From assembly GCA_008632985.1 (NCBI GenBank), contig QPGO01000052.1, positions 1 to 64,000 of the forward strand: a stretch of 64,000 bases of DNA. Direction: 5' to 3'. The notes below the pieces were generated by a model. That model made no database searches. It was given only the letters and a program-made list of their open reading frames with translations, and was not told the origin of the DNA. This DNA is from Psammoneis japonica. Lineage: Eukaryota. Both the position numbers and the translations under genes were made by a program. Shown one piece after another: positions 8,165 through 64,000 of this stretch (within the stretch, counting starts at the first letter, position 1; each line of letters opens with the position of its first letter).

Positions 8165-9330
8165 TTATAATGATTAGGGTGTATGGTGTCTATGGTGTTG
8201 GAGGGGATTGGTCTGGAGAAACAGGTGGTGGGAGAGGTCGCGCGGAGTGCGCTCGGAGATGGAGAAAAATAGGGTTGGCGCCGAGAGAGTGCGGACACTG
8301 GCAGCTAAAGAGTTGTCAAGGCAGTTGTCGATGTAGAGAAGAAAGTTGTCAAAGTGAAGAAGGGATGTGGGAACTCGGTAGACGAAGGAGGGGGGAGGTT
8401 CACCATAGGCTGTCGCGTCGTAGAAGCGCTCGCGAAGGAGGAGGGCAAGGTCTGGTGATGGTGTGAAAATGCGGGGGTCCACGGCGCAGGCGAGCGCAAG
8501 GAAAGGATGAAAGGACAGATTGGAGATAATGCCAAGTTGGTGGAGGAAACGGCGGACTCGAGGAGGGCAACGAAAGGATGGAAGCTTGGGGATTGAGTGG
8601 GGAGGAGCCGAAGGATCGAAGAGAAAATGGGCAAAACAGGGTGGCAGAGGAAGGGCAGCAAACGGAGGAAGATGGGGAGCAGGTGGAGGACTTGGGTGGA
8701 AGGTGATCGGTGGGAGAATGGTGTCATACCAAGTTGGGTCTGGCAAGTCCAAGTTGGAGTAAGACCGATGTAGGGGAGGATGAGAGACGAGATTTGGGAG
8801 GTCTTGTTGACACCAACTTTGGGAGTCAAAGGTTGTTGGAGTGTTGGAGCATGCGGCAGCATTGTCGTTCGTGGGACAAACCGAAGAAAGAGAAAGAAGG
8901 ACATCATTCAGGTGGTGGTCCAGTTATGATCGTTGGATTGAGGATCGATGTCAGAAGGGTTGAACTCACAGGAGTCATCAGAAGGGTTGCATTCGAAGGA
9001 GCAATCAGAAGGGTCATCAAATGAATCCGGGTCGAGGAACAACTCGTCCATTCCGAAGCAACAAACAGCAGAGAGAACTGGTCAAAGAGTGTGTTTTGGG
9101 AGAACTGCTGGCTTTTAATCCAGCAGAGCAACAAAGTCAGCAACCGGTGCAATTGCTGACAGCGTTGGCATGGTTGAGGCGGAGACGGGACGGAGAAATT
9201 CGGGAGGCGGGGGCATTGGAGGTGTCAGGAAGGGGTGGTGTGGGGCTGTGTCGACAACGGGGCGGAGAAATTTGGGAAGCGGGGCTGTTGGAGGTGACAG
9301 GAAGGGGTGATGTGGGGCCCCTTTGCCTTC
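8165..9330 (-). mobile_element. Pyrimidine-rich (minus strand) retroelement-like fragment abutting the WDR55 start codon
   Basis: Strong strand asymmetry, Pro-rich ORF 8174-8752, short internal repeats (cagaagggt x3 at ~8950-9015; cggagaaatt..gg..gcgggg x2 at ~9190/9263). TpA is lost with distance from the gene. No diagnostic domain seen. Confidence 0.4.
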
Positions 9331-21500: not shown

Positions 21501-22090
21501 CTGCAACAAGGTGCATTGAGGGTGGTGCAATGGAGCTGACAGACAGTGTCCTTTCATTGTTTCTCCTGGACTTTTAAAGATGACATGAGCGGCACTTGCT
21601 TTGAGCAACCCAGCTGCAAGCAAATGTGTGCAAGCAACCCAGCAGCTGTCAAACAGCCCACCCAGCTTTCAAAAGCACAACAAACAAATGCAATGGAACA
21701 ACTGTCCAGCACACATCCCAGCAACTCACGTGTGTTGTCCTCAGTCATCGACTCAAGGCAAGCTTCATTTTTGAATTTTTTTGCTGAGCAGCAGTGGCTC
21801 CTGAAGGAAAGATGTGGATCCACTTGGTCAGCTCGAGCCCTGCCATGCTGCACTTTCCTAAAACACCAGTGCATTTTCCCTTTTCTCATGCTCAATGTGT
21901 GTGCAGAGCCACTGCACGCATTGACTCCTGTGCTCCCCCCCCCCATCATGTTTCTGCTCCTTTTGTGAGAGCCAGCCGTGCACCAACAGAGTTTGATTGA
22001 TGCTTTTCCCTGCTGAAAGAAGTCTTTGCCCATGATCTGGAGGTGCACCACACTGTTGGGTAGTCCACTCTGCTCCAGCAGCTGGGGGCC
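15600..22090. mobile_element. Heavily decayed repeat block, depleted of both TpA and CpG
   Basis: Several kb with very few TA or CG and saturated in TG/CA. Six-frame ORFs nearly lack Tyr. No family could be assigned. Confidence 0.6.
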
Positions 22091-30608: not shown

Positions 30609-30854
30609 CCTCCTCGTACCCAAGTTTAGATGGAGACGGACTGACTCAAACCGACCTCGCTCGATGACTATGACCTCTCGCTGGATCCGCGACGGAAGTA
30701 GGGTACTTCCAACTCAAGATGACTCGGTCTAGTCTTCTGACTGTGACCGGTCAAACTTCGGTTTTCTTTTCTCTCACTTTTCCAGCTTTGTTGGAACAGG
30801 AACCCTGATCATCGTGACTGGATCACTCAAGCTCGGAAAAGCATTCTTCTTTTT
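30609..30854 (+). repeat. Terminal repeat A1 (runs into N gap)
   Basis: Matches ~39063-39308 with 6 substitutions by hand alignment. Confidence 0.95.
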
Positions 30855-31034
30855 NNNNNNNNNNNNNNNNNNNNNNNNNNNNNNNNNNNNNNNNNNNNNN
30901 NNNNNNNNNNNNNNNNNNNNNNNNNNNNNNNNNNNNNNNNNNNNNNNNNNNNNNNNNNNNNNNNNNNNNNNNNNNNNNNNNNNNNNNNNNNNNNNNNNNN
31001 NNNNNNNNNNNNNNNNNNNNNNNNNNNNNNNNNN

Positions 31035-33330
31035 AAATCCTCGAGGCACAAGCGATGACATTTTGGGGGGTTGTGGTCATCCCCAGTCGGACATTGACAG
31101 GGCGGAGTTGGGGGAAGTCATTTCCCACCCTCCAGGAACTCACGTTTTGGAAGGAGACGCATCCCACCCGGTTCAGAGGGAAACCCGCTCGTCTCGGGTT
31201 GGTTTCTTTGGGCGGGATTTGTCAGGTAACATCGGAGGCACGGTCGAGTCGGAGAGGGAAGGTGCGTCTTCTTCGTCCTCGCATGTGCCTCGTTGTCGAA
31301 TCACCTGGCTGGAGGCCATTGGGGCACCCCGGTGCTCAGGGATCAAGGGCGGAGGAGCCACCTTCTGTCTCAAGAAGGCAAGCGAGTGCAATGTGAGGCA
31401 CAAGGGCAGCAAGATGAGTGTTCCGGCGTCGGGTGTGGTGGCAATCCTCAAGTCCCCGGACATGGGTTTTTGTCAACCCATCCCAAGTGGCGGGAACATG
31501 TCTGGTGGAGTGTTGGTCAAGTGGGAAGCCGAGTCGGACACACTGGCCGGTTGGCGGCAGAAATTCTTGGCACTGGGCAATGGTGAACCCTTTTCCACTG
31601 AGGACAAGGTCGAACCCGCCCTGAGGGAGCATGAAAGGGCGGCCGAGTTCAAGACACCGGCGCGGAAGCAGTGGCCGGAACCGTCAACCCTTCAAGAGGA
31701 TGCCGTGCTGGAGGGGTTCATGCCGCACAAGAAACGAATGCTCTCCACCCCGGCGCAGTTCCTGGCGGCAAACAAAAGTCCGCCCGCACTGGCCCGTGTG
31801 GTCCAGTCGACCGAGGATGGGTTGAGGCAAGCCGGGGAAGCACCAGCCAACTTTGGGGACAAAGCTGGCAGGCGATTCCATGCTGCGGAGTCCATGATTG
31901 AGATTCTAAGCTGGAAGCTGGATCAGCTCGACGCATCCATCGGGGAACCGACCCAGGGGTTTGATGAGGCTCTTCTTGCCCCTGCTCTTTGGGGTGCGCT
32001 GGCGAACGTTGCATCCCGGGAAGCCGGAACCCAATCTCCGGACCCAGTCGAGCGTGTCACACAAGTGGAGACGGGGTGGCGAAACCAATCTAACAATCTG
32101 GTGAGAACTTTCAACGAGAAGTTCCAACACATGCAAGATCGGATGGGATCGACGGCCACCCGCGCGGATCTGGAAAACCTGAAGAATGACATGCTTCGGG
32201 TGTGTGCACAGCTCACTTCAAAGGTCAGGTCAATCGAGTCCCAGTTTGGTTCGGGGTTTGCACCTCACGGCGCTTCATTCGATCAAGGGTCCGTGGAAGC
32301 AAGGGTCACACGCCTGGACCGCGCTGTGAGTGAGTTACGTGCAAAGTCAGACAAGTCTGCCATTGAGTTCTCGGGGGTTGGCGCATCATCCTACGAGGAG
32401 TGTCAAGCCTGGATGACACAGCATTTCCCCTCGAGGGCATGCGGGTGCTTGGCTGATGTCGTCTTGCTCTTGGACCGAATTAAGGGGATCGAGCCCACCG
32501 CTCTGCATCACTTTTTATCTCAGTGGGCCAAGCGAATGAGCATGAACATCGCCACCGAGGAAGACGCGCGAACTCTGGCGGGTTTTCAGCATCGCATGCC
32601 TCGGATCTTCGACTCAGGATCTGCGAAGTCGTCTCAGACCTTGGGTTTGCACCCCTCTTGCTTGGATAAAATCGAAACCCATGAACACTGGTCTTCGGGG
32701 AATGTCGGAACAAAGCACTTCATCGAGGGGAAGATCGCCACAACGGAGAGCGACATTGTGGAAGACATCAACCAACGTGTCAGACCGGGAACATTTGAAA
32801 GTCAGGCAGTCCGGGACGCATTGTCGAAATCGGTGGCATTTCTTCGGGCGCTAATTCAGTTTATGGACTCCACTTGTGCATCACTCACCGACCTGAGCAA
32901 GTTCTCCAAGAAGCAAGCGTGGTCCTTGACGACTAAATTGACTCACCGCATTTTCGAGGACATCCACAAGGCGCGCTCCGGGGTTTTTACCTCCATTTCC
33001 GGGACGGACCCAGATGCAGTGTGCAGCAAGATTTTGTGGGCGGTGTTTCGGACCCACGACATCATGGCAGAGTACACCTCTCTAGGATTTACCGACCACC
33101 CTTCTATGGCGTCGGAATGCGTCAAGTTTCTGGCTACAAACTCAGGATTCGAGGTGGTAACTGATTTGCAATCTTCGGTGCTGACGCTAACGGAGAAAGC
33201 CAAGAACGCTAGCTCAGAGGCTAAGTCAGCCCAGGCCCGAGGCGACTCGGCGCACGTTGAGCTGGGCAAATTGCGAACGGAAATTAAGGACCTGACTCGT
33301 CGGCTTAAGGCTCTGGAGAGCAAGAAGTGA
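31035..33330 (+). CDS. ORF1 gag-like protein of the YR retrotransposon (5' end in N gap)
   Basis: Long ORF with coiled coils, positioned before RT; only 2 Tyr in ~765 readable aa. Confidence 0.75.
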
Positions 33331-33441
33331 AATTCATGGGGAACGGAGGATACGGGGGAGGGCCAGGTCTCGTTTGATAGGCCGAATAACCTAAGGCACA
33401 TCATACGGGGCAGAAAGGCCTTCTGTTTTCAAGGATCTTGC

Positions 33442-36400
33442 TTGATTCTCGCCTCCGGTCCCCCAATCTGGCTCTTGTCCTTGCAACCAAAGGAATGGCC
33501 TGCTGTTCATTGCTGCTGCGACGACTCCCACTGGGGTTCTCTATCAGTGGAACTGTTTCGGAACCAATTGAATGCCTCCTTGGCACGGGTCTCATGGGCA
33601 AGGGTTGAACAACTGACCAGGCGGGTTGATGTTGTATTCGTGTCGGGGCCACCTTCGTTCCTTGAGTCCGCAGCTCATACAATGCGGTCGGGATCTTTGA
33701 TCATGATCCCTGTGGGAGCGTTTTCGCGTCGCAGTCTTCTAGGTTTAAACCAGTTACAGCGGCGGGACATTACACATGCGGTGGTGGGCGGTGTCACTTC
33801 CTTTCGGACTGCACTCTTCTGGCGGGGGGTTCCTACTCCGGTCTTTGATGGAGGCCTGCGGCGGTCCATTGGGCACATCATCGACTATAAGCTACCCGGG
33901 TCGCCATCGCCACAACACCCGAGTGGGGAATTTTACAATGAGGGCGACCATCTCAACCCACAGTTTCTGACCCGTCCAGTCGTGCACCCATCGTATCGGT
34001 CGCCGACAGGTTGGGTCACCCGTGCACCATCTGTGGATGAGATGTTGGCGGCCTGGGATTTTCCCCTGCGTTTCCGCATGCCTCAGGTACATCAGGCTTT
34101 CGAGCGGGGATTTCCTCTTGTCCCGTTGAATCTCCTCACACTTTTTGTGGAGGCGTTTGTTGATCACACGCCCCGGAATTCGTTACAACCTGGGGGCGTG
34201 GTGTGTGACAACACGGAGGTCGGGGTCCCGGTCCGCCAGGCCGGAACGTGGCTACCGACTCTCGGACGCCATTTACCCCACACTTGGATCGACGTATCCC
34301 TCATAACGGCGAAAGCTGCAAAGGGGGATGCGGCAGCCCCTCCTTTCCGGTTGTGGGATAAGAGGATCACTTTGATTTTCCCGGGGTCTGGCAAGGCTTT
34401 GCCAGCCCTTCGGGACTTGGCGCACCGGTGGTGGCGGCGAAAGACCCTTCAGTCCTTTCTGGGCCATCTGCGCCGGGAGTGTGGTCCGACTTGGGTCGCC
34501 ATGCTGGCGACACAACGCCGACGTTTTGGGGACGCCACCGGGCGTCTTCAGGGGGGGGTTTGCCGCCACCCTCCACTCCCACCCTTGCTTCTAGACGCAC
34601 ACCTTGGGACTGAGGTGTTGGCGCAAGTGTTGGACAGCTCCTGGTGGAGTTGGGACCGAGGTTCGTCTCTTTTATTCTGGCGGTGGCCCACTCCGGAACA
34701 GCGGGTGGGGGCTCGAGATGGGATCCAGACATTTGTCAAGGGCCCTCTCCCTCGCAATCGCCGATGGCAGAGAATCCGGGGGTCCGAGCACAAGATTCTT
34801 AGGATGGTGGACAAGATCCAAAAGGTCCGAGACCAAGGTTGCATCCATCGTGGGAGGGTGGTTAGTCTAACTGATTATTTTTGGGTCCCAAAAACCGTCC
34901 GTGTGGAACCCCAGAATGGTCGCTTGGTGGAAATCGTTGAAGACGTGCGAATGGTTTATAACGGAACCTCCTCGGGGTTGAACGACGCCCTCTGGGCACC
35001 CTCGTTTTTCTTGCCCACTCCTGCGTCGGTTCTGGGGTGCATGACTCGTGCTGCCTTTTCAGTGGATCTCGACCTGGGCGACATGTTTTTAAACTTCTTC
35101 ATGGATCCCAACATTCGGCCACATGCGGGGATCGACTTGACGCCTCTCAAGCCACATCTCGGGTCCCAGGAGTCGATCTCGACGGGCACGCCCTGGTTCA
35201 AGCATTGGAACCGTTTGTTTGTGGGGATGCGGCCCAGCCCTTGCTTGGCGGTGAGGGCATTTCATTGGGCTGATGAGATTGCCAGAGGCGATCCAAACCG
35301 ACTCTCCAATGTCATGGGATGCGACAAGCTGCTCCTAAACTTGCCAGGGGATCCCAACTTCCAGACGGAGAAACCATTCGTGATGAAGTGGAATTCTCGT
35401 CGCAAGGAAATTGCTGGCGACATAAAAACATTCGTTGATGACTTGCGCGGATTGGGGGCTAATGAGGAATCCGCCTGGCAAGTTGCTCACCAAATGGCCT
35501 CGCGGTTGCAGTGTCTTGGACTGCAGAATGCTGCCCGGAAGGTGCGCCCCCCCTCGCAGGTTGAGACCGGAGCCTGGGCTGGTGCCATTTTCCAAGTTAT
35601 CGATGGGGATGTTGCTCAGTCAGTTTCCCAGGCCAAATGGGATAAAGCCAAGGGCATCATTGCAGAACTGCTTGGTTTTTACGCCGGGCGTCCGGGGGGC
35701 TTCCTCCCTGCATTTGACTTTAAGGATCTGGAGCGGAAGAGGGGATTTCTAGTCCACCTTGCGATGACTTGCCCCTTTTTGACACCATTCCTTAAAGGAA
35801 TCCATTTGACCCTCGACTCCTGGCGACCAAATCGAAAGAAGGATGGTTGGGCGATGACTGCGAAAGAATTCGCAAGCTGGATTCACCACCTCGCTGAGAA
35901 GCAGGGCCTTGACCCGTCAGAGGTTGCTGAGGGGCTAAGGGATCAACCGCCCCCTCCGCAGGTCACGGCTGTCCCTCGTTTGTTCATGGATTTAACTGCC
36001 ATGTCCCGCGTCACGGAGTCTCCGACCCCTTCCACGGTTGTCATCCGGTCCTCAAAGATTGTCACTGTCCTCTGTGGCTTTGGGGATGCATCTGGAAAAG
36101 GCCTTGGGACCTCCCTGGAAGCAGCGGACGGAACCATCATCTTTCGGATTGGTGTGTGGGGCGATGATGATCTGGGGAACTCCTCCAACTGGAAAGAGTC
36201 ATCCAACACGGTGGACGCCATCCAAGAACTTGGGGAGCAGGGGGAATTGACCGGCGCGTGTTTGTTCTTTTTTGTGGACAACTCAGTTGCTGAAATGGCT
36301 TGGCACAAGGGCACCTCGACCAGCCCTCCACTGCTTGAGCAGGTCATTTGCTTGAAATCTTTGGAGGCTGAGTGTGGGATTAGGCCATGTCTCATGCATG

Positions 36401-37114
36401 TCTCGGGGGTGCGGATGACAGCTCAGGGTGCTGACGGAGTGTCTGGGGGAGTCTTGACCGAGGGTGTCATGAACAGAGCCAAGATGCTTTCGTTTGTCCC
36501 TCTCCATCTCGGAGCCACAACTCGGTCGGCTGCTCTCTTTGCCTGGGTTCAATTTTGGGCTGGGACTCCAGCTCCGGAACTGCTGACCCCCTTGGATTGG
36601 TGTCAGAAGGGTCATGACATTGCGGGGGTGGAGCTGCCCAGCCTGCGAAGCCATCGAAATGCCCCATTTCAGATCGGGCACGTGGGTCTGGGCCCCACCT
36701 CCAGCCGCGGCGAGAGCGGCCCTAGAAGAGCTCCGGATTGCAAGAATCAAGCGCCAGACATCGTTCCATGCATTCATCTGCCCGCGTTTAATGACTCCGG
36801 AGTGGCAGAAACAGTTGCACAAGGCGGCGGACCCAGTGTTTGCTGTCCCGGCTGGATCAAGGCCGTTCTGGCCAGGTGACATGTTCGAGCCCTTGCCAAT
36901 TGGCCTTCTTTTTCCGTTCGTCTCCTGCAGCCCTTGGCAGCTTCGGGGAACCCCGAAAATGCATGCAATGGAGCGGTCCCTGCGTCGAGTGTGGCCGGAT
37001 GCTACGGTGGACGAAAGGAATGTTTTTGCGCAAATTTTGTGCACAGTGTGGGAATCTGGCCGGCATGTCGGAAGGCATGGTGTCCAGGGTGCCATGCTTC
37101 GAGAGAAAGCATGA
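33442..37114 (+). CDS. Reverse transcriptase / RNase H ORF; frameshift at G-run ~36625
   Basis: DVRMVYNGT, DLDLGDMFLNF, GMRPSP, KTFVDD, GFGDASG, NWKE and FVDNS motifs; continues as WVWAPPPAAA...EEL in ORF 36614-37114. Confidence 0.9.
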
Positions 37115-38500
37115 CTTTCCGTCTGGGGGGGACTCTGGAGGACGACCCTCAAAACGACAACGCGCAATCTCTCGGGGGGGGACCGCCCAAGGCTGGACGA
37201 CAATGCTTGGCATCGGAAGCCTCAAGACAAAAACAAGTTTGTACGGGCTCGCGTGGGAGATCATCTGATGGTTGCCTTTGAGTGCGACACCTGTGCATTT
37301 CACAAGCTCCACCAGAGGGAGGCCCTGCCTTCATCACCTCGAGACGAGGTCGCTCTAGCGTGCACTTGGAGAGTGATTTTGGGCGCGTTTTGGAGCAGGG
37401 AATCGACAACAGTCGAAGCAAACGCGTCGAGAGTTGGGAGGGGCCTGGCCTCATCTGAGCGCCTGGGCCCAACGGGGCCTTACCTCGAGCCAGGCCCTCT
37501 CCCACCCTGTGATCACTGTGGACATGAAGTCGCTGTGCAGATCGTCTTGGCTTCGACGGCGGCGGGAAAACACTCGGAATCGTACACTCAGTTCGACACG
37601 ATCCGAAAATTGCGCACTGCTTGCTCCAACCAGGTGCGCGCATCGGCGGAGGCTAATTCGCGAGCTTTGGCATTGGGGGATTTGGAAGGCAAACAGCATC
37701 TGCGCATGTGCGAAGACCCGTGTGCTTCACTGTGGTTCCAGCGATTCATGACCGGATGCAAAAGACGGGTGGGCCAAGACTGGAGGCCTGACAGAGCAAC
37801 ATCGGTCGACGTCATGCAACATCTGTTGCCTCGGGTCGAGGAGAGGGCCCTCCGAGCCCCAGGAGAGGCAGAGAGATTCATTTGCCTTGCACGCGGATTG
37901 CACTTTGCGGCCAGTTACGTCTTGTCTCTTCGAGGTCCCGAAGGCCTGCTTGTGGACTTGGGGGCTCTTGTCAGACACCTCCCAAGACACGCGGATTATG
38001 TGGTCGTCCCTCTTTTGGGCCGAGTCAAGGGAGAGCATGGGGAGCGGCAGCACCTCCTCCCCAGTGTCAATGTCACCAGCTCAGGTGTCAACCTTCGTTT
38101 TTGGGTCGAAACGGCAGTCTCATTACACTGGGATCATCGGCGCACGCATGGACCAGCGATGTCAAATGTGGCGGGAAAGGTCTTGTCTACGAAAGAGCTC
38201 AACATTTTCTTGCATGAAGTCTTGGGAGACATCCATGAGGACCACCCAAGCCCATTCGCAGCGGACATCACCACGTTCTCTGACACACAGGACAAGCATG
38301 ATGTGAGTTGTTCGTTCAGACGGGGTTCGGACTTGCGTGCCATTGCTCAGAAGGTGCCAGAAGATGACATTGAAGTTGTCAACCGTTGGAAGAAGAAGGA
38401 AAGATCAGGTGCGGCACGACCCACACACAAAATGCGCCAGCACCATGCCGACATTACCCTTCTTTTGCCATCATTCCTGCGTCACACTAAGGCCATGTGA
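36934..38500 (+). CDS. Tyrosine recombinase, probably inactivated; frameshift at G-run ~37175
   Basis: SLRGPE (Arg I), LLGRVKG (Lys), SFRRG (Arg II), NRW. MRQHHAD has His where the catalytic Tyr is expected. Confidence 0.85.
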
Positions 38501-38719
38501 CTCGGGACGGTCGCGAGCCCTTGGCAACGCCAGGTCTCCGGAGGACAGTCTTCCAGCTTCCTGCTCTCCGGATCGATGTTTTTGGTGGCCACTACCCAGG
38601 ATTCTCATCGGGGGGATTGGAGCTCGACCCGTCTTATTCGGCCTCGGGAGTCAACAAGACGAGGTCTAGGACTGCAACGCAGCACAACACCTTCGACGGC
38701 TCCAGTTTTCGTACGGGAG

Positions 38720-39732
38720 AACTTGGTCTGGCGTGTCTTCATTCGAGGTGCTCACTTTACCCCCCAGTCACTGCCCAACGTCGCGAAATGCCGAAGGGTG
38801 TGATGCCAGGGGTTGGCTCTCGGAAACGCCCGAGGCACCAGTGCTCCGTTGAATTTCCGGAAGAGCCCCTGCACTGGTCCAACCCTGCAGAGGGTTTGGG
38901 TTTCTCCCACCCCCCCTTGTGCGGAGCAGAGCTTACACCGAAAGCCCTGCTCTGTGAGTCTCCTGAGCATCTTAAGGTTTTGTCACTTCTCAGTGGTTCT
39001 TGACTAGGATCAATTGAGATCTAGTCCGAAGCGGTCGTTTTTTGCTGAGTCAACACTCGGATCCTCCTCGTGCCCAAGTTTAGATGGAGACGGACTGACT
39101 CAAACCAACCTCGCTCGATGACTGTGACCTCTCGCTGGATCCGCGACGGAAGCAGGGCACTTCCGACTCAAGATGACTCGGTCTAGTCTTCTGACTGTGA
39201 CCGGTCAAACTTCGGTTTTCTTTTCTCTCACTTTTCCAGCTTTGTTGGAACAGGAACCCTGATCATCGTGACTGGATCACTCAAGCTCGGAAAAGCATTC
39301 TTCTTTTTACCCACCCACCACACCCTGGGATCCAGTTTTCGGCGGATCAAAGACAGGAGAAAAAACAAATTCGAGCTCGTTCGTGGGAAAACTTGGTCTG
39401 GCGTGTCTTCGTTCGAGGTGCTCACTTTACCCCCTAGTCACTGCCCAACGTCGCGAAATGCCGAAGGGTGTGCTGCTGGGGGTTGGCTCTCGGAAACGCC
39501 CAAGGCACCAGTGCTCCGTTGAATTTCCGGAAGAGCCCCTGTGCTGGTACAGGACCCTGCGGAGGGTTTGGGTTTCTCCCACCCCCCTTGTACGGAGTAG
39601 AGCTTGTGCCGAAAGCCCTGCTCTATGAGTCTCCTAAGTATCTTAAGGTTTTGTTACTTCTTAGTGGTTCTTGACTAGGATCAATTGAGATCTAGTCCGA
39701 AGCGGTCGTTTGCTGAGTCAATACTCGGATCC
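38720..39732 (+). repeat. 3' repeat block B1-A2-B2
   Basis: aacttggtctggcgtgtcttc...ctcggatcc occurs twice and flanks a second copy of A. Confidence 0.95.
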
Positions 39733-45909: not shown

Positions 45910-46800
45910 NNNNNNNNNNNNNNNNNNNNNNNNNNNNNNNNNNNNNNNNNNNNNNNNNNNNNNNNNNNNNNNNNNNNNNNNNNNNNNNNNNNNNNNNNNN
46001 NNNNNNNNNNNNNNNNNNNNNNNNNNNNNNNNNNNNNNNNNNNNNNNNNNNNNNNNNNNNNNNNNNNNNNNNNNNNNNNNNNNNNNNNNNNNNNNNNNNN
46101 NNNNNNNNNNNNNNNNNNNNNNNNNNNNNNNNNNNNNNNNNNNNNNNNNNNNNNNNNNNNNNNNNNNNNNNNNNNNNNNNNNNNNNNNNNNNNNNNNNNN
46201 NNNNNNNNNNNNNNNNNNNNNNNNNNNNNNNNNNNNNNNNNNNNNNNNNNNNNNNNNNNNNNNNNNNNNNNNNNNNNNNNNNNNNNNNNNNNNNNNNNNN
46301 NNNNNNNNNNNNNNNNNNNNNNNNNNNNNNNNNNNNNNNNNNNNNNNNNNNNNNNNNNNNNNNNNNNNNNNNNNNNNNNNNNNGTGGTGTGTGTGTTCTT
46401 GCCCTCTCTGGAGCAGAAAATGGAGCACCCCCTTTTAAAAAGAGACCCACATCAAGTTTTGCTTGGTGGTCTTGGGCACAAACTTTGCATGGTTGGAGCT
46501 CCCATCAAAGGTCCTGTGAGCATCATTTTTTGTGAGAGGGCAAGGACCTTTTTTTGTTGGGAACACTTCAAGGGGACCAAACAAATGGAGCTTTGCAAAA
46601 CAACCTGCACTCTTGCACTCGCAGTGGTTGTTCTCTCAGTGCAAAAAGGAGTCTCAGAGGGGCTGCACCTGGCCTCTGAGGGAGCTGATGAGGGGCTCAC
46701 ATTTTGAGCTTGTTGCCTCACTTGCTTGCCAGCTGCACTGCAGCATGCCTTAGAGTGTGCCACTGTGATTGTAAAAGCAGTGCTAGGTTGTGAGCAGCTG
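44180..46800. mobile_element. Decayed TpA-depleted repeat block containing an N gap
   Basis: TA nearly absent; Cys/His-rich spurious ORFs; unclassified. Confidence 0.5.
45879..45909 (+). repeat. (TG)n microsatellite at gap edge
   Basis: About 15 TG units run into the N gap; gtgtgtgt resumes after it. Confidence 0.9.
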
Positions 46801-47493: not shown

Positions 47494-49007
47494 TCATTTG
47501 CTATTGCTGACAGCGCTTCGTCTCAATAAGTACTCCTTGAGTTCGACATTGTTCTCTGTCTCGTAGTCAAGAAATTGCCTTACTGCATCTCGAAGCCCAG
47601 GGTGACATATATAGTGCGAGGAATGAATCAATGCAGGATCAAAGCCTCTCGCCCACTTGTAATCTAACATGCATTTTGTCCATCAAAGCAGAAAGTAAAT
47701 ATGTGAAAGGGTAAGTACCCAGACGAATTCAAACGCGAATACTCTTCCTTACCTCCACCACCAGCACCAGGTTCCATACGCTTCAGCCCATTTTTGATAC
47801 AGTATTCAATTGCTGACCAATAGCAACACTCAAAATGCAAATTCTTGATCTCTCTCCCCGGAAGACAGCCCCAGTATCGACCGTAGAAAACTCCATCCTT
47901 GACAATGTTCAATGTTCCCGCAAAGACATCGTCTGCACGTAGCTTGTCTCCGGCAGATTTGTCCCGCGCACACAGAAAGCACAGGTTATGAATGAAGTCT
48001 CCCTTCACCAGGCACTGAAAGAAGTCGAGAGTCAGGTATTGTCGACCGTAAAACATCCGATTGACTGTAGACACATATATTTCAAACATGCGTTCCACCA
48101 ATCCATCGTGCTTTAGTATATCGCTTCCAGTCACGGCGTCGATTCGTACATTTTCGTCTTGTACAACCTTTTGTCGTTCTCGACGAATGTTGATTCGCCG
48201 TTTACTTTTGAAGCATTTCAGATAGTCCTCAAAGGACTTGTACGGCTTCCCGTCGTTGTTTGGATTGCTATTTGTCCAATGATATTGAAGCGACGTACGT
48301 CGCAAGTAGTCGTCCTTGTTCTTATTGAGTTTCGTCAGTACAGCCTTGAGATTACCTCCCAAAGAGCCTTTTTCCTCTTTCTCGTTCACTTCCTTAGCTT
48401 TAGGGAGTTCGCCTGAAAGGTGTGTTGCCTCATCGTGAGTCAGGAAGTTGAAATGAACACTGGAAATGTTATTTGATTCAACAAGTCGTCGCAAAAAGGA
48501 ACCAACCATGACAGTGAGATTAGCGATCTCCTCTTTTGAAAATGTCTCTCTGATTTCCGGATGGAACATTATCCGTGCTCCAGTGGCCGGTGTAAAGGGT
48601 ACGCCGACTAGTAGCTTTGGATAGTATTTGATGCCATTCTGATACGCGGCTTCGGCCCAAGCATCGTCGAAAATGAATTCTCCGTTGGAATGATTTTTGA
48701 CATAGAGAGGGATATATCCGCGTACCGCTCCATCGATCTTCAGTGACAAGTGCTGAGGGACCCAACCAGTCTGTGGCGACACGCATTTGGATTCTTCGAG
48801 ACAGCACAAAAACGCGTGTTCCAAGAACGGAGAGGAAGATCCATCAGGTGCAAGACAATTATTCCATTCCTTCGCAGGAATGTCGGAAATTGACGGGTTC
48901 AGTTCAAATTCCACTTTCCGTTTCTTAGTTGGCGGTGCGGTCGCCAACGCATCTGTGTATGTTGCAACCAAATACAGCAGCCATCCGCAAACAAGCAGCG
49001 GGCTCAT
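47494..49007 (-). CDS. FemAB-like GNAT protein (DUF482 type) with N-terminal signal peptide; intron 47664-47752
   Basis: HSNGEFIFDDAWAEA, YYPKLLVGVPFTPATG, YGRYWG, LHFECCYW; spliced MEPGAGGGDYKWARGF. Confidence 0.9.
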
Positions 49008-49433
49008 GGTGAAGAATGTGGAAATGGTCTGGAAAAGATCGATCGTTCGGGGGTGAATGACGTGGCAAAATTCCAAATGTTAGTTTTACGATTTCGACTA
49101 TGAATATAAACATAAAGTACTGCAATAAAAATGTTCGTCGCCTAGACTTTTTATGTATGTGTTTTAGTCGAATCATTCGCACGTCAGATGAATGAGGAGA
49201 AAAATGGCGCGCCGGATTTTTTCGTCGGCACGTCTTCCGTCTCACACGAAACAATGCACGAAGCACATTCGGCAACATGCAACATCATCTTTCACAACAC
49301 AAAACGAATGTACCGAGTTTATTGTGCTTTCTACAACAGCGCATTTCCTGTTCGAATAATCAAGGTTCCTCCCCGTATCGACACGATTGTCTCTACTTCA
49401 TTTCTCTCCCGTTCTCTACTCTCCCTCCTCAGC

Positions 49434-56667: not shown

Positions 56668-59298
56668 TCATTCGTGCCGGTAAAGCAACTTCAAATTGAT
56701 ATCTTCATTGTTCGACAACTTATCCGCGTAGACACCAAGAGCCCCCCATGGCTCCTCGTACCCCGTTGTGATGGAATAATGGGGCTGGCGGTTTGATAGT
56801 CTTGGGCGTACTTGCGCAGGAAGTCTAGTTGATGCAAGTGCTGTCTTGGACACGTCTGGCAGGTTTGTTGTAGCAACCATCATATTGCGATCGACGTCCG
56901 TAAATCGGAATGCCCCATGATCAGCGGTGTCAGCCTAGTTCCAAAATCCAGGAAAGATGTTCAATAATCAAACATACATGTGGTCAATCGAAAATCACAC
57001 TTCACTTACTGCTAAAATAAGAGCATCCCCGTGGTCTGGTGAAAACTTTTGTTTCAATAAAGTCGATTCGTCAAAGGGCGGCAGCCATCCTGGGTTATAC
57101 CTGGTAAGCATGTAACTGTGTCCGAGAACGTCGTTTACAGCCATGCCTAACGCACACGGACCACAGAGGAGTAAATCGAACCCTGATCTCGGCTTCCAGA
57201 CCTCCATGTCATCTTCCGTGGCTGAATGGCAGATGTCGCGTTCAATGTCGTATATATCCGCACGATTCAGAACGAATGTCAATACCCGCTCAACAACTCG
57301 AACCAAAAATATGTGACCTGGCATCGAACCCATAAACCCGTTCCACAAGCAAAAATTTTCGTCTGCATAGTCCGCGACTACGTCAAGAGGCGCAAAGAAT
57401 GACATGTCCGGTGTAATGAATGTATCAAGGTTTGCATCCAGTTTCACGTCAACGTCGGCGTAGACACCTCCATCTCTTAAGAGCACTAGATATCGGAAAA
57501 AGTCAGCCTGCATAAATGAGAAAAATGTACGTGCATCAGCATGTTCGAGGAGGGAATTTTGAGGGAAGAAGCGGTACAAACGAGCATGCATACCTTGTAT
57601 GCTCCTGGAACCAAAGCATCGAAAGCATCAACAAATCGCTTCGGGTAATGCTTCACAATGTAGTCCCGGGCGCTCTGATCGGTGTAGAACCTGTATTCCC
57701 ATCCAGAAGTCTTCCACGTGTTCTGCAACCGCGCAAGATCGGGGTATCGGTCGGACGTGATTTCATCCCACCACGTCTGATGGACAATTCTTGGTATTCT
57801 TCCATGTCGTCGGATTCCATCATCGATAGCTTTTTGTGCCGGCGGTCTTGAAACTGAAACCTCTACTGTCACTTCTTTCCTTTTACTGTTTATAGGTGAA
57901 ACGCAAAAGAATTCCTTCATGTTTCTTGGACAAGGCAGCTTACACGCCGAAAAAGATCCGTAATAAGGAGCTCGAAGACATCGCGTACAAAGCCAACTAG
58001 GAATAACGCCGAGGCGTTTCATGACTTCCTTCGTTGGGGTCTTGAGTTCTTTAACTGGCTCAGGTGTGTTCTTCGCTTCTTCAATAGTCACTGTCATCTT
58101 TGACTGCTGCTGTGGCAGAGCCTGACCGGCATTTGTGGTAGAGTCAGCAAGACTATTTTCAATCGTGACGTAAATGCTGTCCCCTTTATGTAGTAGAGTC
58201 GTAGATCCTTGACTTTCTAATTTGTTTCTGCTGTCCGTGTCAAGAATTGTGGAAAGCAATTCCGCGGGAGAGGTCGTGTTCTGTAGTCCCTTAATATCGT
58301 ACATCAAAGACTTCACATATGAATGGCGAGGAGAAACCGCAAACAGACAAAAGTCCAGATTGTCCTTGCCCGTTTTGGTTTGGTTTGAAGCTAGTTGCGA
58401 AGTGGACTGCGCGAATACCACCGCACCTCGAGCCATACATGGTTTGCTCTCTTCAAGCAAGATGTGGCTGAGTTGTTCATCTTCCGTATCAGAGACATGA
58501 GTAAGATCTCGGACATGGTCTGCGACAAAATAGCCTCCAAACTGATACAGGCTGCAAAGAGCCCAGATATAGATTCTATCTGAGTTTGAGGCGGATCTGT
58601 AGGCTTCCTCAAGACTTCTACAGAAGTGCAAAATCGTCCTCCGCATATCTTCCTTATCAAAGAGAATCACATTACCAGATGCCCCTCGGATTGGCTTGAT
58701 CCACTCTGTAGCTGGAGAATCACGTTCGGGATTCTGGATGGAAGTTTCAGCACAGGCCCCGAGTTGCGCGTGTTGTTGCGCCAGAGTGAGCACGATTCCT
58801 CCCACTCGCTAGCTTGGTATGTTAGATTATGCAGTGAATTTTCTCTTTGAGCAGCTTTGTGAGTGTCTGTACTAGTGCCCCGTTTGAGAGACTATGAGTC
58901 GGCATCTGAATCCCCAACGATTGCAATCGTGACTGTCGTTGTAGCAGCGTTTCGTCATAAACGCGAGAACGAACTTTCGAGTCCACATATAATCCAAACC
59001 GTCCACCTCGAAAGGAATAAGGGGATCCAAATATTGTCCGATGATAAGACCAGTATAAGCCAAGTACGAGAACGCAGAGGCAACAGAAAGCGCGCTGGCG
59101 TTGTTTTCGAGAAGAACAGAAGCGAGATAACCGAATAAGGAAAAAATGAGACAGACCACTGAATGACTTCCAATGTTGCTTCGATTCCTTCTCCGTTTGA
59201 ACCGTCAGGTCGAGCTTTTGGAACGGAAAAGACACACCGCCTCGAAAACGTGGAGACATATCACAGTTGTTGCTTGCAACCGCGCCTCGTTTTTTCAT
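56668..59298 (-). CDS. Glycosyltransferase family 32 (DxD) type II membrane protein; introns ~58809-58872 (probable), 57508-57593, 56935-57009
   Basis: IPRIVHQTW, WEYRFYTD, PGAYK|ADFFRYLVL..GGVYADVD; N-terminal TM; a degenerate first GT32-like segment (SLYQFGGYF). Confidence 0.88.
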
Positions 59299-59682
59299 CT
59301 CATCGTCCTGCTGTGCTTTTTTTGTTTTCCGTTTGTTGTTCCGTCGGCGCGGTCGCGTCGCTCTCGCTCGGCGGTGTACTGTACGGTGTATGTGTTCTGT
59401 GGTTAGACTCTAGTGTGACGTGTGACGGTGGAGCATATTACTTTTATACGGATTTAAAGATCGAAATATTTTAACGGTGCGAACTCTATCGTTTCAAAAA
59501 ATGCTGTTTACAGCGCAGTGCCAGCACATGATGCAACATCATGCCTTCAGCAACGCTGTCATTTTTCGCCCATGGAGACCAGGACATTTGAAAAACGGGT
59601 GACAGCACGCACGCGCACAAAAATTCAGAAATTCTGATTCAAAAATCAACCGTTTGTACGTGCTCACTGTGCTGCACTCTAC

Positions 59683-61180
59683 TGCAGGTCGGCTCACCTC
59701 GCAATGGCCCTCAGTTCGTTGCATCCGTCTCATCCCGATGGCCTGTGTTGTTGCTGCATGGCATGTCAGACCCCCATTTCATTTGCCATGGGCACAAGGC
59801 TGCCGATTGCCTGTGTGTGTTCCTCTCGAGAAGAATCGAATGTCGTTTGATGACTTGCGACTTGTGCACACTGTTCGACTCTCGCCGTTGCCACGGAAGC
59901 ATCGTCTCATCCGTTGGGTTTGGCGAGTCTATCTTTTGGATTATTCTAGGACACGTCATGGCGATTGAATCCAGTGCGGGGGCGGGACACAGTGATCCCA
60001 AGGACTTTTTGCCGCCACACGGCATTGCCAATGCCCTGGGTGGACAGCTCTTGTTCGGTTTGCCGTCGACACCTTTCTCTTTCTTTTGGGACTCCTCGTG
60101 GTGTGGGTGCTTGGCAAGATCCCAACGTCGGTTCCAACTGTGAATCGGAAACGAATGTGGTTTTGCACAAGCACACATTGACCCTGCCGGGACTGTTGTT
60201 GCATCGAGTCTTGAGAACACTTCCCGTCTGTGCGGTTGCACATGGATTCTGGATCATTGTCACCCCTCATCTGGAAGGTGGACCCTTTGGCACAAGTGGC
60301 TTGGTCTTTTAAAGCCGTGCATGGATTGTGGTTGGACCAACTTGCTCTTCACAAACAACTTTGTCCCGTCCGATTTGGCCAATGTGGAAACCTGTTTTTG
60401 CCATTCGTGGTGTCAAGCGATTGACGCTCAGCTCTTTCTGATTGCACCTCTTCTGGTGCACTGGCATCGCCAATGGCAAGTCGGTGGGCGTTGTGCCACT
60501 TTTGCATTGACGGCACTCTCGGTGGCGGTCACGTTTTATTTGTCATTTGTTCGAAGCTGGAGTGTCAACACCTTTGATGGAGCGGCCGTCGCAAGGTTTG
60601 ATGTCGAGGGTCATGCCAAACCGCATGTTTGGGCCCAATCCTGCTTGTCCGGCATTCTCTTGGCCACATGCCTTGGAAAAAAATCGTCTTTGTCGATGAT
60701 GGTTGGTGCCAACACCAAAACAAAATTGTGGCACCGAATCATCATGGGACTTGAGCTTTTGACATTGGCCAGTGTCACTGTTGGCACAGTCACGGGTGCC
60801 TGCAGTCAACAACCCTGGCGCTACGAAGAGTGGCCCATGCTGTCCAAGTGCAAAAGCACGTGGAGTCCAACAGCAACATTTTGGTGTGCAGCAGCTGGGT
60901 GAGCCGCTTGGTCTCTTGCGGCTGCAATCTTTGTTGGCTTGTGTTTGACGGGACACGGTGGCATGGTGGGAACCATTTTGTCTTGGAAGGTGTGGACACC
61001 GCTCTCCCAGCTCAGTTACAGTGCCCACCTTGTCCATCCCATTTGCCTCTTTGCACGGCAGTTGAGCGATGCAAAAAAGGCCAGTTTATCCGTGCTGTCC
61101 ATTGCCATGAACTAGGTGGCCATGGCGGTGGTGAGCTTTGTCGTTGTGTGCGAACTGTCTGACAATGTTGAGCTCTACGG
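59683..61180 (+). pseudogene. Acyltransferase-3 (NRF-6/O-acyltransferase-like) pseudogene with TpA-type mutations
   Basis: FWIILGH, AVDTF, HRVLR, WTNLLFTNNF, CFCHSWCQAIDAQLF (consensus CxxHxWYLAxDxQLF), KPH, WTPLSQLSYSAHLVHP; multiple frameshifts. Confidence 0.85.
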
Positions 61181-61899
61181 CACCTTGTCTTCACAGGGCA
61201 AAACAAATCAAATTCGGTGACCTTGCTGCCAGAGAGAATTCGGCTGCTTAACATGATAGTTTGACTTGGTGCTGCTAGAGGAGTGGTTTGAGTGGGTCTG
61301 AGACTTGTCTTTGCATGAGGTTTTTCTACGCCGATGCCGAGAGATGATCTGTCAGAGGACATGGATGCACCGCAGTGATTCGAATGGATGCACAAGAGAG
61401 CCGCAACCATCGTGCTGGTCAACCGACGGCATTTTAGTGACAGATTATAAACAGGTGACAAACACACATGCTGCAGATGCCGCGATCGGCACAGTCGAGA
61501 AGCGCTTTGTCTTGTCACCAAGAGGACAGGTTCGTTGTGCCTGCATGCTGTACCGAGTCGAAAATTGATAATTTGTGCAGTTCTTTTATCATGAACATTC
61601 TAATTCAGTGCCAAAACAACTCCTTGGAAAGTTGTCGCCGCATGGCAGGACTTCGTTTCCTGATGTTAGCCTTGGCGGGAGGAATGTTGAAGGCTCTCTC
61701 CAGTCATCCCAGCAGCACTTTGTGCACCCACATTTTCGCAGAATGAATGGAAATTCAAAACATGCAAAGCCATCCAATTGTCATCAGTGGCAGCGGAAAT
61801 GTCTGGCAATGAATGCGCTTTGTGTGTCTCGAAGCTGTCTGGGTGCGTCAAGCGTGGCATCAAGGTCAACTCGAGCGACGACGTGGAACGAGCATGATG

Positions 61900-62300
61900 T
61901 GACATGTGGCTTGCCTTGGGTTCCAGGCTAATTTTATGCACAAGCCTGCAATGTAAAGGTTCAATGTCAATGCCTGCTTCTTTACACTGGCAATGCAGGA
62001 GTCATTTCGATCTTGTTGTCTCTAACAATGTTGTCAACTGACTTTCTCGCAACTGCTTGATGTTGCGGATCTTTTGATGTGTGCCATCTTTTTCAATTTT
62101 TTGTGCACGCGGCGCGCTGTCACCCGTTTTTTTAATGTCCTGGTCTCCATTGTGGTGCCATGCGATGGTCTGATTGGCAAGGAGGCTCAAGCCGCCCTGC
62201 GTCAGCTAGTGGGAAAGATTTCTAACAAGTGGCAGAAAAGCCCTGTTTGGAAGTGTGTGGCTTCTTGTCAACACAAGTGAGATTCAGCATGAGGACTCAA
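61900..62300 (+). mobile_element. Decayed 3' fragment of CRE-like (RLE) non-LTR element
   Basis: IVVPCDGLIGKEAQAALRQLVGKISNKWQK then PCLEVCGF, resembling the RLE C-terminus. Confidence 0.65.
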
Positions 62301-63299
62301 CAAACACAGCACAGATGCAGGCCACACTCTTGTGATGCACAAGCATCCAGGACACCAGCCAAATGTGCTGCAGTCAAGCAGCCTCAAATGGTCATGTGTG
62401 GCACATCATGCCAGTGCCACAGCAGCAAAGTCAAGTGAGCAATGACACACCACAGAATTGAGCTTGTCCTGTGTTGCACCCAAGAATGATGGAACATTTT
62501 TGTGGTGCATGACTTTTTTTGAAGTGCGGCTTGTTTGAAAAATGACTGGTGGCAAATCCAGGGAAAAGCTCTAAAAGTCACACCCACATGCATTTCAGCA
62601 AAAGTCAACCTGGGCTCTAAACCTCCTCATTGTGTGTCCAAAGTTTTTCTGCCACAGAGGAGGGGCCAACAAATGGTTTTGCTCAAATGTTGCCATGATT
62701 TTTTGGGTGCAGCACAGGATGTGCTGCAAAGAACAAGAGAGGGGACAACCCCCCATCAAAAGCATGAGTTCAGGCATGCAGCAGATGGGCTGGTCTCTGC
62801 TGAAAAACCCAACAGGGAGGTTGTTGGCAGTGATGAGAGCTTCTCAAAAGCAGCAACAACAACAACCAGCCCGGTGGCAGCATTGCATGTCATCGTGGTC
62901 AACAAACCCTTTTGTTGGATTCCAGTTGACTCCATCTCACAATGAGCATCACACCAAGTCTTCTTCATCTGAGGCAGCAGCAGAGACTTTTTTGTGAGTT
63001 GAATGCCCACCTGTCTTCACGCCAGGAGTTTTTGACACTTGGATGAGTTCAAGTGTCAATTTCCCCCATCAGAAGCCCAGACACAGGCCTCCACACAATC
63101 CAGTGCAAAGTCCATCCATGTTCTTAGTGTGTGCCACACCACATGCATGGCAACATGCTCTCTCATGAGCAGATTGCTGCTTTGTGCTGGAGCTTTAGTG
63201 CACCTTGACACACAGACTTGCAGATCCTTGGTTGAGCAGCTGTGCCTCTGTTCTCTTTGAGATCTTCATGAACATGGAACATTTTGATGACAGCAGGAG

Positions 63300-64000
63300 C
63301 ATGCATCACATGTCAAATCAACAAAAAAAGACCAGATCCATGTTTTGAGTGCTGTCGCTCCTTTGCCACCAGCTGGGCTGGCGCCAGCTGACCCACACTT
63401 CCAGCACACCATTGATTGTGGCAGAAGCTCATGGGGATCAGCCAGAATGGACATCACCTCACAGTGACGCCCCACTGAAATAACCAGCAACAGAGCAAGT
63501 GTCACAAAGCATGGAGTTCTTCATTTTCTTGAGGCTTTCTCTCATGCATGGTTTTGCCACAGCAGTGCAGTTCATTGTCCATGAGGTGGAGTGGGACATG
63601 TGATCTTCCACCAAGTCCAGCAGCACATCTCTGTGAGGTGCTCCTGTTTTTTGTTGCACATTGCCGTGAGTTTGGCTTCCACTTGTTTGCACTGAGATGA
63701 TTTCCTGGTGTCTGCATCACATGACCATGCACCTCTTTGTCATGCTCTTCCCACAACTCCCGCCAGGATTTCCAAGTGCAGGCTCCGATCTGCACTGCCC
63801 AAATGGGAGGTGAGTGATTCTCCTTGTGACACTTTTCCAGCAGTCCTGTGCTGCAAAGATGCATTTCTTGAAAAGTGTTCCAAAGAGTGGAAAAATGATG
63901 GTTGAAAACTCGATGCCAACCCATGTCAGACTGGGCTCTCCACAAAGGACGCAACATTGGGGCAATGTTGTCATTGCATGTCATCTCTCACCTTGAGACC
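63300..64000 (-). mobile_element. Decayed 3' end of a LINE related to the 11-13 kb element
   Basis: AQSDMGW...PPIWAVQIGACTWKSWRELWEEHDKEVHG parallels PPSWTVQMGSFMWKQWQSLWEEHNHHAHG at ~11400. Confidence 0.7.

Follow-up and report, generated by a model that had tools for sequence, protein, structure and literature searches.

Hypermutation of the dinucleotide TpA has been described in the chlorarachniophyte alga Bigelowiella natans, where it strikes integrated giant-virus and virophage DNA and has been read as a defense against integrated viruses (Mettrop et al., bioRxiv 10.64898/2026.01.13.699255). According to the part of that report available to us, all A>G and T>C changes in mutation-accumulation lines lie at TpA and arise in DNA, an ADAT2-like candidate is proposed, and hypermutated clusters are delimited by a Rho TpA of at most 0.43 and a Rho CpA+TpG of at least 1.52. 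A literature search whose coverage left out most subscription journals returned no report of TpA hypermutation in diatoms. Here we describe a footprint of this kind in 64,000 nucleotides of Psammoneis japonica DNA (contig QPGO01000052.1, positions 1–64,000; hereafter, the window), with emphasis on a decayed copy of a gene of the acyltransferase family Acyl_transf_3 (PF01757) near its right end. This partial, frameshifted copy is one of several and was very probably hypermutated from TpA to TpG or CpA after duplication.

In the four 1-kb segments that make up 60,001–64,000, the observed/expected ratio (o/e) of TA is 0.06, 0.31, 0.09 and 0.05, and the mean of the TG and CA ratios is 1.64, 1.56, 1.80 and 1.88. 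By these o/e values, computed here, all four segments fall within the bounds that the available part of the B. natans report gives for its clusters.

TA steps and tyrosine codons in an acyltransferase copy

Positions 59,683–61,180, which the original prediction had singled out, contain 10 TA steps, compared with a mean of 79.2 in 2,000 shuffles (s.d. 6.8, minimum 58), i.e., a TA o/e of 0.13, and the o/e values of TG, CA and CG are 1.50, 1.73 and 0.71, respectively. By comparison, TA o/e amounts to 0.61 in the left flank (58,000–59,509) and to 0.37–0.61 in ten open frames from TA-normal parts of the window. In the homologous part of an intact environmental homologue it is 0.80; this single locus (L001), retrieved by a metagenome scan with the protein P0002 as query, is at 53% identity too distant for nucleotide polarization and serves as a TA baseline only. 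The predicted limits are roughly right, in that homology to Acyl_transf_3 spans 59,875 to ~61,220 and the TA-poor block extends from ~59,510 to ~61,250 (59,510–61,248, with 12 TA against 96.5 expected, o/e 0.12; TG 1.52, CA 1.71, CG 0.72). TA has been lost faster than CpG, and CpG decay is a minor component in the acyltransferase copy (CG o/e 0.71 versus TA o/e 0.13).

When 59,592–61,220 is read through with X at stop codons, scoring of 8,000 candidates yields 66 relatives at E ≤ 0.001. The closest is P0002 (380 residues, E = 4e-112, 58% identity), followed by diatom proteins of ~700 residues that share 37–46% identity and carry PF01757; the named relatives are from the diatoms Phaeodactylum, Mayamaea and Fistulifera. 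The Pfam model PF01757 itself gives the mutated read-through 8.8 bits (E = 0.99) at a cut-off of 31.

To define conserved columns, the reading frame of the window copy was corrected, and a column was counted if at least 60% of 64 homologues have the same residue. The window copy keeps 185 of the 261 conserved columns (71%), and the losses are concentrated at tyrosine: only 3 of 16 Tyr columns are kept, the others reading His (six), Cys (six) or TAG (one), versus 182 of 245 kept for all other residues (Fisher p = 1.2e-5). The original prediction had named native Cys or His in intact orthologues as an observation that would speak against it; none of the 64 homologues has more than one such residue over these 16 columns, and the mean is 0.28. 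Since most TA steps have been lost, conserved Tyr codons (TAY) now encode Cys (TGY) or His (CAY).

The motifs on which the prediction was built are all present, i.e., CFCHSWC (TGC at 60399, TGT at 60411), FTNNF (ACA at 60351), VHWHR (CAC at 60459, CAT at 60465), EGHAKPH (CAT at 60612), QSCL (TGC at 60642), SAHLVHP (CAC at 61026) and DAQLF (GCT), and P0002 has Tyr, Ile or Val where it was predicted, its corresponding motifs being CFYHSWY, FINNF, VYWYR, EGYAKPH, QSYL, GAYLVHP and DVQLF. The last of these had been set apart as a counter-example, and correctly so: with GCT as the codon, the change from Val to Ala does not derive from TA.

Single-step changes were derived from the 76 departures from the family consensus. 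Eleven correspond to one TA>TG step and eight to one TA>CA step, compared with four CG>TG, five CG>CA and nine other transitions; TA-type changes thus make up 19 of 37 inferred single-step transitions, and A>G or T>C outside TpA accounts for only four. The transitions are TpA-specific, and both DNA strands are hit, because changes of the TG type and of the CA type are balanced. Alignment with P0002 covers 292 columns, 180 of them identical, and polarization with this protein places 40 changes on the window lineage and 5 on the P0002 lineage, with 67 unpolarizable.

By tblastn, there is a single acyltransferase locus within the window, and tblastn together with the three forward frames divides it into five pieces. 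An intact open reading frame of family length (~700 residues in diatoms) is absent: there are three frameshifts and two in-frame stops (TGA and TAG), and residues ~50–254 are missing. Because of the three frame changes and the two stops, 59,875–61,220 is, judged from its sequence, a pseudogene, i.e., a decayed, non-working member of Acyl_transf_3. All pieces lie on the forward strand. The N-terminal remnant STLAVATEASSHPLGLASL (59,875–59,931) matches residues 31–49 of the 715-residue homologue P0003, and the next homologous residue is ~255 (at 59,928), which leaves ~200 codons missing. The coding remnant SIFWIILGH...GGQLLF (59,928–60,056, frame of 59,862) contains a Tyr-to-His change at 59,988, where other copies from the same sample read T. 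A first frameshift near 60,056 leads into RFAVDTFLFLLG... (60,056–60,157, frame of 59,861), which is followed by NVVLHKHTLTLPGLLLHRVLR...GGPF (60,154–60,288, frame of 59,860) and by the main coding remnant (60,288–61,220, frame of 59,862) with most of the Tyr-to-Cys and Tyr-to-His sites. The further frame changes near 60,157 and 60,288 are accompanied by one-base deletions of the window copy at 60,160 and 60,285. The in-frame TGA (60,900–60,902) lies where 98% of homologues have Arg, and would be compatible with CGA to TGA, that is, with CpG decay; the in-frame TAG (61,113–61,115) occupies a Tyr column (63% of homologues, and also P0002).

Other copies in the sample and the inverted-repeat unit

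Contigs from runs X1–X3 of the same sequencing sample were placed on 58,000–62,200 at 80% likeness. At this threshold, 171 contigs of X1 and 9 of X2 match, with up to five variant contigs per place, and no contig of X3 does; 92% of the words sampled from the stretch occur in X1, and contig depth is not readable as copy number. Less mutated acyltransferase copies coexist with the window copy in the sample, and the TpA changes of the window copy postdate duplication. An X2 contig of 1,921 nt (record 11) covers 59,930–61,146 with 156 differing letters and 24 gaps. X2 differences by kind are 56 C>T, 47 G>A, 23 T>C, 25 A>G and 78 transversions. The sequence context of contig differences was counted in 40 of 505 difference rows, chosen by support and not randomly, of which 32 lie in 59,757–60,275; among the rows listed for this interval, with contigs of 80–95% likeness, 10 of 15 C>T or G>A differences have CA or TG in the window versus TA in the other copy, 6 of 8 T>C or A>G differences have TG or CA in the window versus CG in the other copy, and 9 rows are transversions.

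Since the X2 contig continues unlike the window upstream of 59,930, the 200-codon deletion appears to be special to the window copy. An extra T is present behind 60,160 in four X1 and two X2 contigs and behind 60,285 in two X1 contigs and one X2 contig; therefore, these two frameshifts are the window's own. P0002 was probably called on another frameshifted copy that retained its Tyr codons, because its first 60 residues align to the out-of-frame reading of the window.

The contigs also bear on whether the pattern could be an artefact of assembly, or of base calling where heterochromatin carries modified bases. Some long-read chemistries are known to miscall such bases systematically, and the three runs of N in the window lie in or next to TA-poor blocks. 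Against this, three X1 contigs (records 4, 6 and 8) are identical to the window over 59,951–60,382, 60,354–60,960 and 61,173–61,623, with no differing letter, which is a partially independent confirmation given that they may be the assembly's own source. Furthermore, run X1 holds TA-bearing copies as well, and the frameshifts, stops and CpG decay are real degeneration. We regard an artefact as highly improbable.

The pseudogene lies in a unit of ~2.58 kb (59,572–62,150) that is bounded by an inverted repeat and whose ends are common to several contigs of the sample. An inverted-repeat search delimits a left arm of 39 nt (59,572–59,610, forward strand), 92% complementary to a right arm of 39 nt (62,112–62,150, reverse strand), and a weaker likeness around the left arm spans 59,542–59,649. 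An exactly matching X1 contig that comes from the unique left flank (record 2) stops at 59,573, and nine contigs lose likeness at 62,151/62,152. The TA-poor block starts within ~60 bp of the start of the repeated DNA, because the last normally spaced TA is at 59,509, the repeat runs from 59,572 and the contig ends at 59,573. The acyltransferase copy may thus ride in the repeat unit. No target-site duplication was found in the flanks of the unit, either as a shared word of 7–10 nt or as a 9–11-mer with one mismatch; if one existed, heavy mutation may have obscured it.

The right part of the unit (61,249–62,150) shows intermediate TA loss (18 TA, o/e 0.29), and a profile scan of its stop-to-stop frames gave no protein family. 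To the right of the unit, 62,151–64,000 has a TA o/e of 0.06, and its CG o/e is 0.14, versus 0.74 in the acyltransferase unit, with similar TA loss. This suggests that the repeat at 62,151–64,000 is older or carries heavier methylation, and that TA loss reaches saturation well before CpG loss does.

TA loss across the window and in repeat pairs

Over the whole window, TA loss is confined to blocks. The distribution of TA o/e over 125 intervals of 500 bp is bimodal, with 46 intervals below 0.2 and 57 at or above 0.4. TA is anticorrelated with TG/CA (Spearman −0.81) and correlated with CG (+0.73) over these intervals. In the comparison of TA-poor with normal intervals, TA changes 0.12-fold, CG 0.45-fold, CA 1.48-fold and TG 1.47-fold, and only these dinucleotides shift, AA (1.10-fold) and TT (1.11-fold) being unchanged or slightly up. 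CG o/e is 0.44 in the TA-poor intervals and 0.98 in the normal ones, and the low-TA intervals contain 2,357 TG and 2,282 CA.

A direct view of TA loss is provided by a unit at 30,609–39,732 with internal repeats in the order A1 ... B1-A2-B2 (A1, 30,609–30,854; B1, 38,708–39,064; A2, 39,063–39,308; B2, 39,380–39,732). A1 and A2 (246 nt, 97.6% identical) differ at six positions, two TA|TG, two TA|CA and two CG|CA. The 19 events that distinguish B1 from B2 comprise ten TA|TG or TA|CA, three TG|CA, three CG|CA, one other transition and two transversions, which brings the TA-type share to 4/6 and 13/19 events, respectively. Since A2 has changed at four of its six TA sites and at none of ~220 other non-CpG sites, the TpA mutation rate would, by our own arithmetic, be at least 100 times background. 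At 13 sites, a TA kept by the edge copies (A1 and B2) is gone from the interior copies (A2 and B1), and the reverse is seen once (two-sided binomial p ~0.002; the numbers are small and A1 adjoins a run of N). TA loss depends on position within the element, not on sequence alone. Because other acyltransferase copies keep their TA, and because interior and edge repeats differ 13 to 1 in TA loss, a trigger that lies in position or chromatin is somewhat favored over one of homology alone, the original prediction having named RIP-like targeting of duplicated sequence and a silenced domain as the two options. The duplicated state of the acyltransferase copy and the start of its block at the repeat edge fit a targeting of repeats.

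The layout of this unit is reminiscent of tyrosine-recombinase retroelements of the Ngaro/PAT type, in which the direct repeats are split. It contains long open frames of 865, 1,182 and 461 residues. The 1,182-residue frame (33,331–36,876) has 5,228 relatives at E ≤ 0.001; no Pfam family was detected in five of these relatives, and one relative, P0188, has no solved relative. Language-model features give a lead only, to clusters with RVT_1 (46% of members), DNA_methylase and Dam. Twelve conserved Tyr columns of this frame read Tyr (one), Cys (six), His (two) and Phe (three).

Repeat pairs and the tyrosine columns together speak to two explanations that dispense with a TpA-specific process in DNA. 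The first is that a pseudogene in a genome with a general avoidance of TA has undergone plain neutral decay. TA is indeed low throughout the window (o/e 0.64 in normal 500-bp intervals), and the acyltransferase copy has many unrelated substitutions. Neutral decay is nevertheless extremely improbable in view of the TA o/e of 0.13 at the locus (the ten open frames have 0.37–0.61, and the flank next to it has 0.61), the bimodal rather than graded distribution, the 97.6%-identical repeat pair in which six of six differences are at TA or CpG, and the Tyr-specific loss with p = 1.2e-5.

The second explanation is A-to-I editing of sense RNA at UpA by an ADAR- or ADAT-like activity, followed by reverse transcription of a retrocopy or retroelement. 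Both ADAR and ADAT favor U before the edited A, according to the available part of the B. natans report (10.64898/2026.01.13.699255), and the retroelement-like unit, whose protein family is reverse-transcriptase-like by language-model features only, shows the same Tyr loss as the acyltransferase copy. Editing of the sense RNA predicts TA>TG only, whereas Cys and His are equally frequent (six each), 11 TA>TG stand against 8 TA>CA, and the repeat pairs of the retroelement-like unit show changes of the CA type as well as of the TG type. Furthermore, TA loss sets in at the edge of the repeat, ~300 bp upstream of where the coding remnant starts, and the acyltransferase copy lacks a 3' poly(A) tail. 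Because of the strand balance in particular, we consider editing and reverse transcription very unlikely. The original prediction had arrived at a DNA-level process not limited to reverse-transcribed elements from the fact that a cellular gene is affected. Its conclusion is supported by strand symmetry, repeat pairs that differ mainly at TA and both ways, the Tyr-to-His changes in a second host gene (RPC25/RPC8, below) and the mutations that arise in DNA in B. natans; its argument is insufficient, because a duplicated host gene may equally be a retrocopy or part of a mobile unit.

We propose that the acyltransferase copy would have arisen by duplication and come to sit in the 2.58-kb inverted-repeat unit. 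A local, strand-symmetric hypermutation would then have changed 5'-TpA-3' to TpG or CpA (A:T to G:C), with a slower loss of CpG to TpG or CpA in parallel, until at least some three quarters of the TA steps had been lost and conserved tyrosines read Cys or His. The underlying chemistry may be an enzymatic deamination of adenine preceded by T, on either strand, with hypoxanthine read as G, and the enzyme would be attracted by repeated DNA that is silenced and methylated at CpG. Its extended preference may be roughly A/G-T-A-T/C, with TTAA refractory. This sequence preference is taken from residual TA per kb, compared between TA-poor and TA-normal intervals by symmetrized context: the ratios are 0.52 for TTAA, 0.35 for CTAA, 0.13 for GTAA, 0.12 for CTAG, 0.09 for ATAA, 0.07 for GTAC, 0.06 for CTAC, 0.02 for ATAG, 0.007 for ATAC and 0 for ATAT (0 versus 75). 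With small counts near saturation, these ratios suggest that the target adenine is preferred with A or G at position −2 and with T or C at position +1.

The same TpA-specific process in DNA could attack thymine instead, by modification and faulty repair or by polymerase misincorporation in repair synthesis. TpA is self-complementary, T>C and A>G give the same two products, and counts do not separate the two; the tie with CpG loss (Spearman +0.73) would fit repair patches at deaminated 5-methylcytosine. A polymerase-eta-type signature is WA and should deplete AA and TT as well, which are not depleted, and a polymerase-eta-like WA signature was set aside for this reason. The small number of transversions in the young repeat pairs (0/6 and 2/19) also counts against this alternative. 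We consider an attack on thymine unlikely, while giving it some real weight.

Several observations weigh against our reading of the acyltransferase copy. Ten TA are still present in 59,683–61,180, and the 61,249–62,150 portion of the unit shows just half the TA depletion. Ordinary decay is also large, since 26 of the 76 departures from consensus require a transversion and 13 require at least two steps. The ancestor is a family consensus plus one protein (P0002), at the protein level only, and the context counts of contig differences come from a supported, non-random selection of 40 of the 505 rows. Some of the other contigs may represent alleles, or a different organism present in the sample, and an intact parent gene was not seen among the contigs of the sample. 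The unit appears to be multicopy and is bounded by an inverted repeat; with no target-site duplication, its status as a transposon is unproven. Finally, deamination of adenine is our interpretation of changes in which A>G on one strand would be indistinguishable from T>C on the other, and the sequence data appear to point to no particular enzyme.

A second dead host gene is located in a TA-poor block at ~10,353–10,882 on the reverse strand, in two frames. It encodes the RNA polymerase III subunit RPC25/RPC8, as judged from matches to SHS2_Rpb7-N (E = 0.0034) and RNA_pol_Rbc25 (E = 8e-4) in Pfam and to PDB 3ayh_B (E = 1.2e-6), and it aligns from Met1 of the solved proteins. Two Tyr positions of these solved proteins read His in it (ICVY/ITIY versus ICWH; SSY versus GH). 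In another TA-poor block, 1,485–1,814 on the reverse strand has a weak match to Dynactin_p62 (E = 0.0012, below cut-off), and may be a third decayed copy of a host gene. The TA-normal parts of the window hold ordinary genes, for WDR55, lysine methyltransferases, a GRAM/VASt protein, a FemAB-like protein, dUTPase, Ric8 and RPC82. The FemAB-like gene (47,664–49,079, reverse strand) is intact, and its best named relatives are from Attheya and Cylindrotheca (60% identity) and Nitzschia (52%). The source of the window is diatom nuclear DNA, the relatives of this gene and of the acyltransferase both being diatom.

TA-poor blocks have further properties in common. Long stop-free frames occur on both of their strands, e.g., at 16,000–22,000 and 33,331–36,876, and are gene-like with no family hits. 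Such false open frames arise because TA loss removes TAA and TAG. A Pfam scan of stop-to-stop frames (65 of at least 130 residues and 104 of 75–129) gave no transposon family in these blocks, which is weak evidence, as hypermutation blunts profiles. Three tandem duplications in TA-poor blocks, at 1,566–2,011, 2,168–2,403 and 9,185–9,318, contain two, three and one TG|CA double differences, respectively, as expected if the two copies changed a single ancestral TA differently, one to TG and the other to CA. The three runs of N, i.e., assembly gaps, at 453–544, 30,855–31,034 and 45,910–46,383 are all in or at the edge of TA-poor blocks, and this fits blocks made of repeated, hard-to-assemble DNA.

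Comparison with described systems

TpA hypermutation was reported only in 2026 and in one chlorarachniophyte; the same footprint, near saturation, in a diatom widens its taxonomic range, and the dead copies of host genes (acyltransferase and RPC25) widen its range of targets. The pseudogene provides an internal ruler, in that its conserved Tyr codons give the direction of change (TA to TG/CA) and the balance between strands, and comparison with its milder CpG decay identifies TA loss as the faster of the two. For the annotation of diatom genomes there are two consequences: TA-poor blocks accumulate spurious long open frames, which can mislead gene callers, and hypermutated copies escape profile searches, as exemplified by a Pfam E value of 0.99 for a copy that retains 71% of its conserved residues.

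With Pack-MULE-type elements, the acyltransferase unit shares a fragment of a host gene between inverted repeats, and terminal parts common to several contigs; it differs in that neither a target-site duplication nor a transposase relative was found in it, and the likeness is one of resemblance only. Deamination of 5-methylcytosine (CpG decay) feeds TG and CA in the same blocks, but cannot remove TA. As in A-to-I editing by ADAR and ADAT and in A>G-hypermutated retroelements, A is read as G and T/U is preferred before it; unlike such editing, which acts on RNA and on one strand, the changes described here affect both strands equally and include DNA outside the coding remnant.

The correspondence with B. 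natans is closer. As in the available part of that report, TpA changes to TpG and CpA on both strands, and changes are confined to blocks that form TA-poor, CA+TG-rich clusters. The host, however, is a diatom (a stramenopile) and not a chlorarachniophyte, and the targets are not confined to foreign DNA but include dead copies of host genes, acyltransferase and RPC25/RPC8. TA o/e is deeper here (0.0–0.13) than the 0.45 given for the nucleocytoplasmic large DNA virus (NCLDV) region of B. natans, and CpG loss accompanies TA loss, of which the available part of the report makes no mention. The mutations of B. natans were, according to the same source, seen in real time, whereas the diatom locus offers a footprint in one sample, as contigs.

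Repeat-induced point mutation (RIP), which occurs in Neurospora and other fungi, likewise ruins duplicated DNA, including host genes, by block-wise, dinucleotide-specific transitions together with DNA methylation. We put forward as a tentative possibility, more speculative than likely, that diatoms run a genome-defense mirror of RIP. A TpA-specific DNA adenine deaminase would erase TA in silenced or repeated chromatin, in retroelements and spare copies of host genes alike, at no less than 100 times background, with an A/G-T-A-T/C preference that spares TTAA. Such a system might be ancient within the stramenopile–alveolate–rhizarian (SAR) supergroup, because the same footprint is found in a rhizarian alga, and it might limit gene duplication as RIP does in Neurospora. 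The comparison with RIP also brings out differences. RIP depends on duplication, with all copies hit, and on a sexual phase; a like dependence of the diatom process would be conjectural, and other copies in the present sample retain their TA. The direction is reversed as well: RIP changes C to T, mainly in CpA, and so creates TpA, whereas here TpA is destroyed and CpA and TpG are created.

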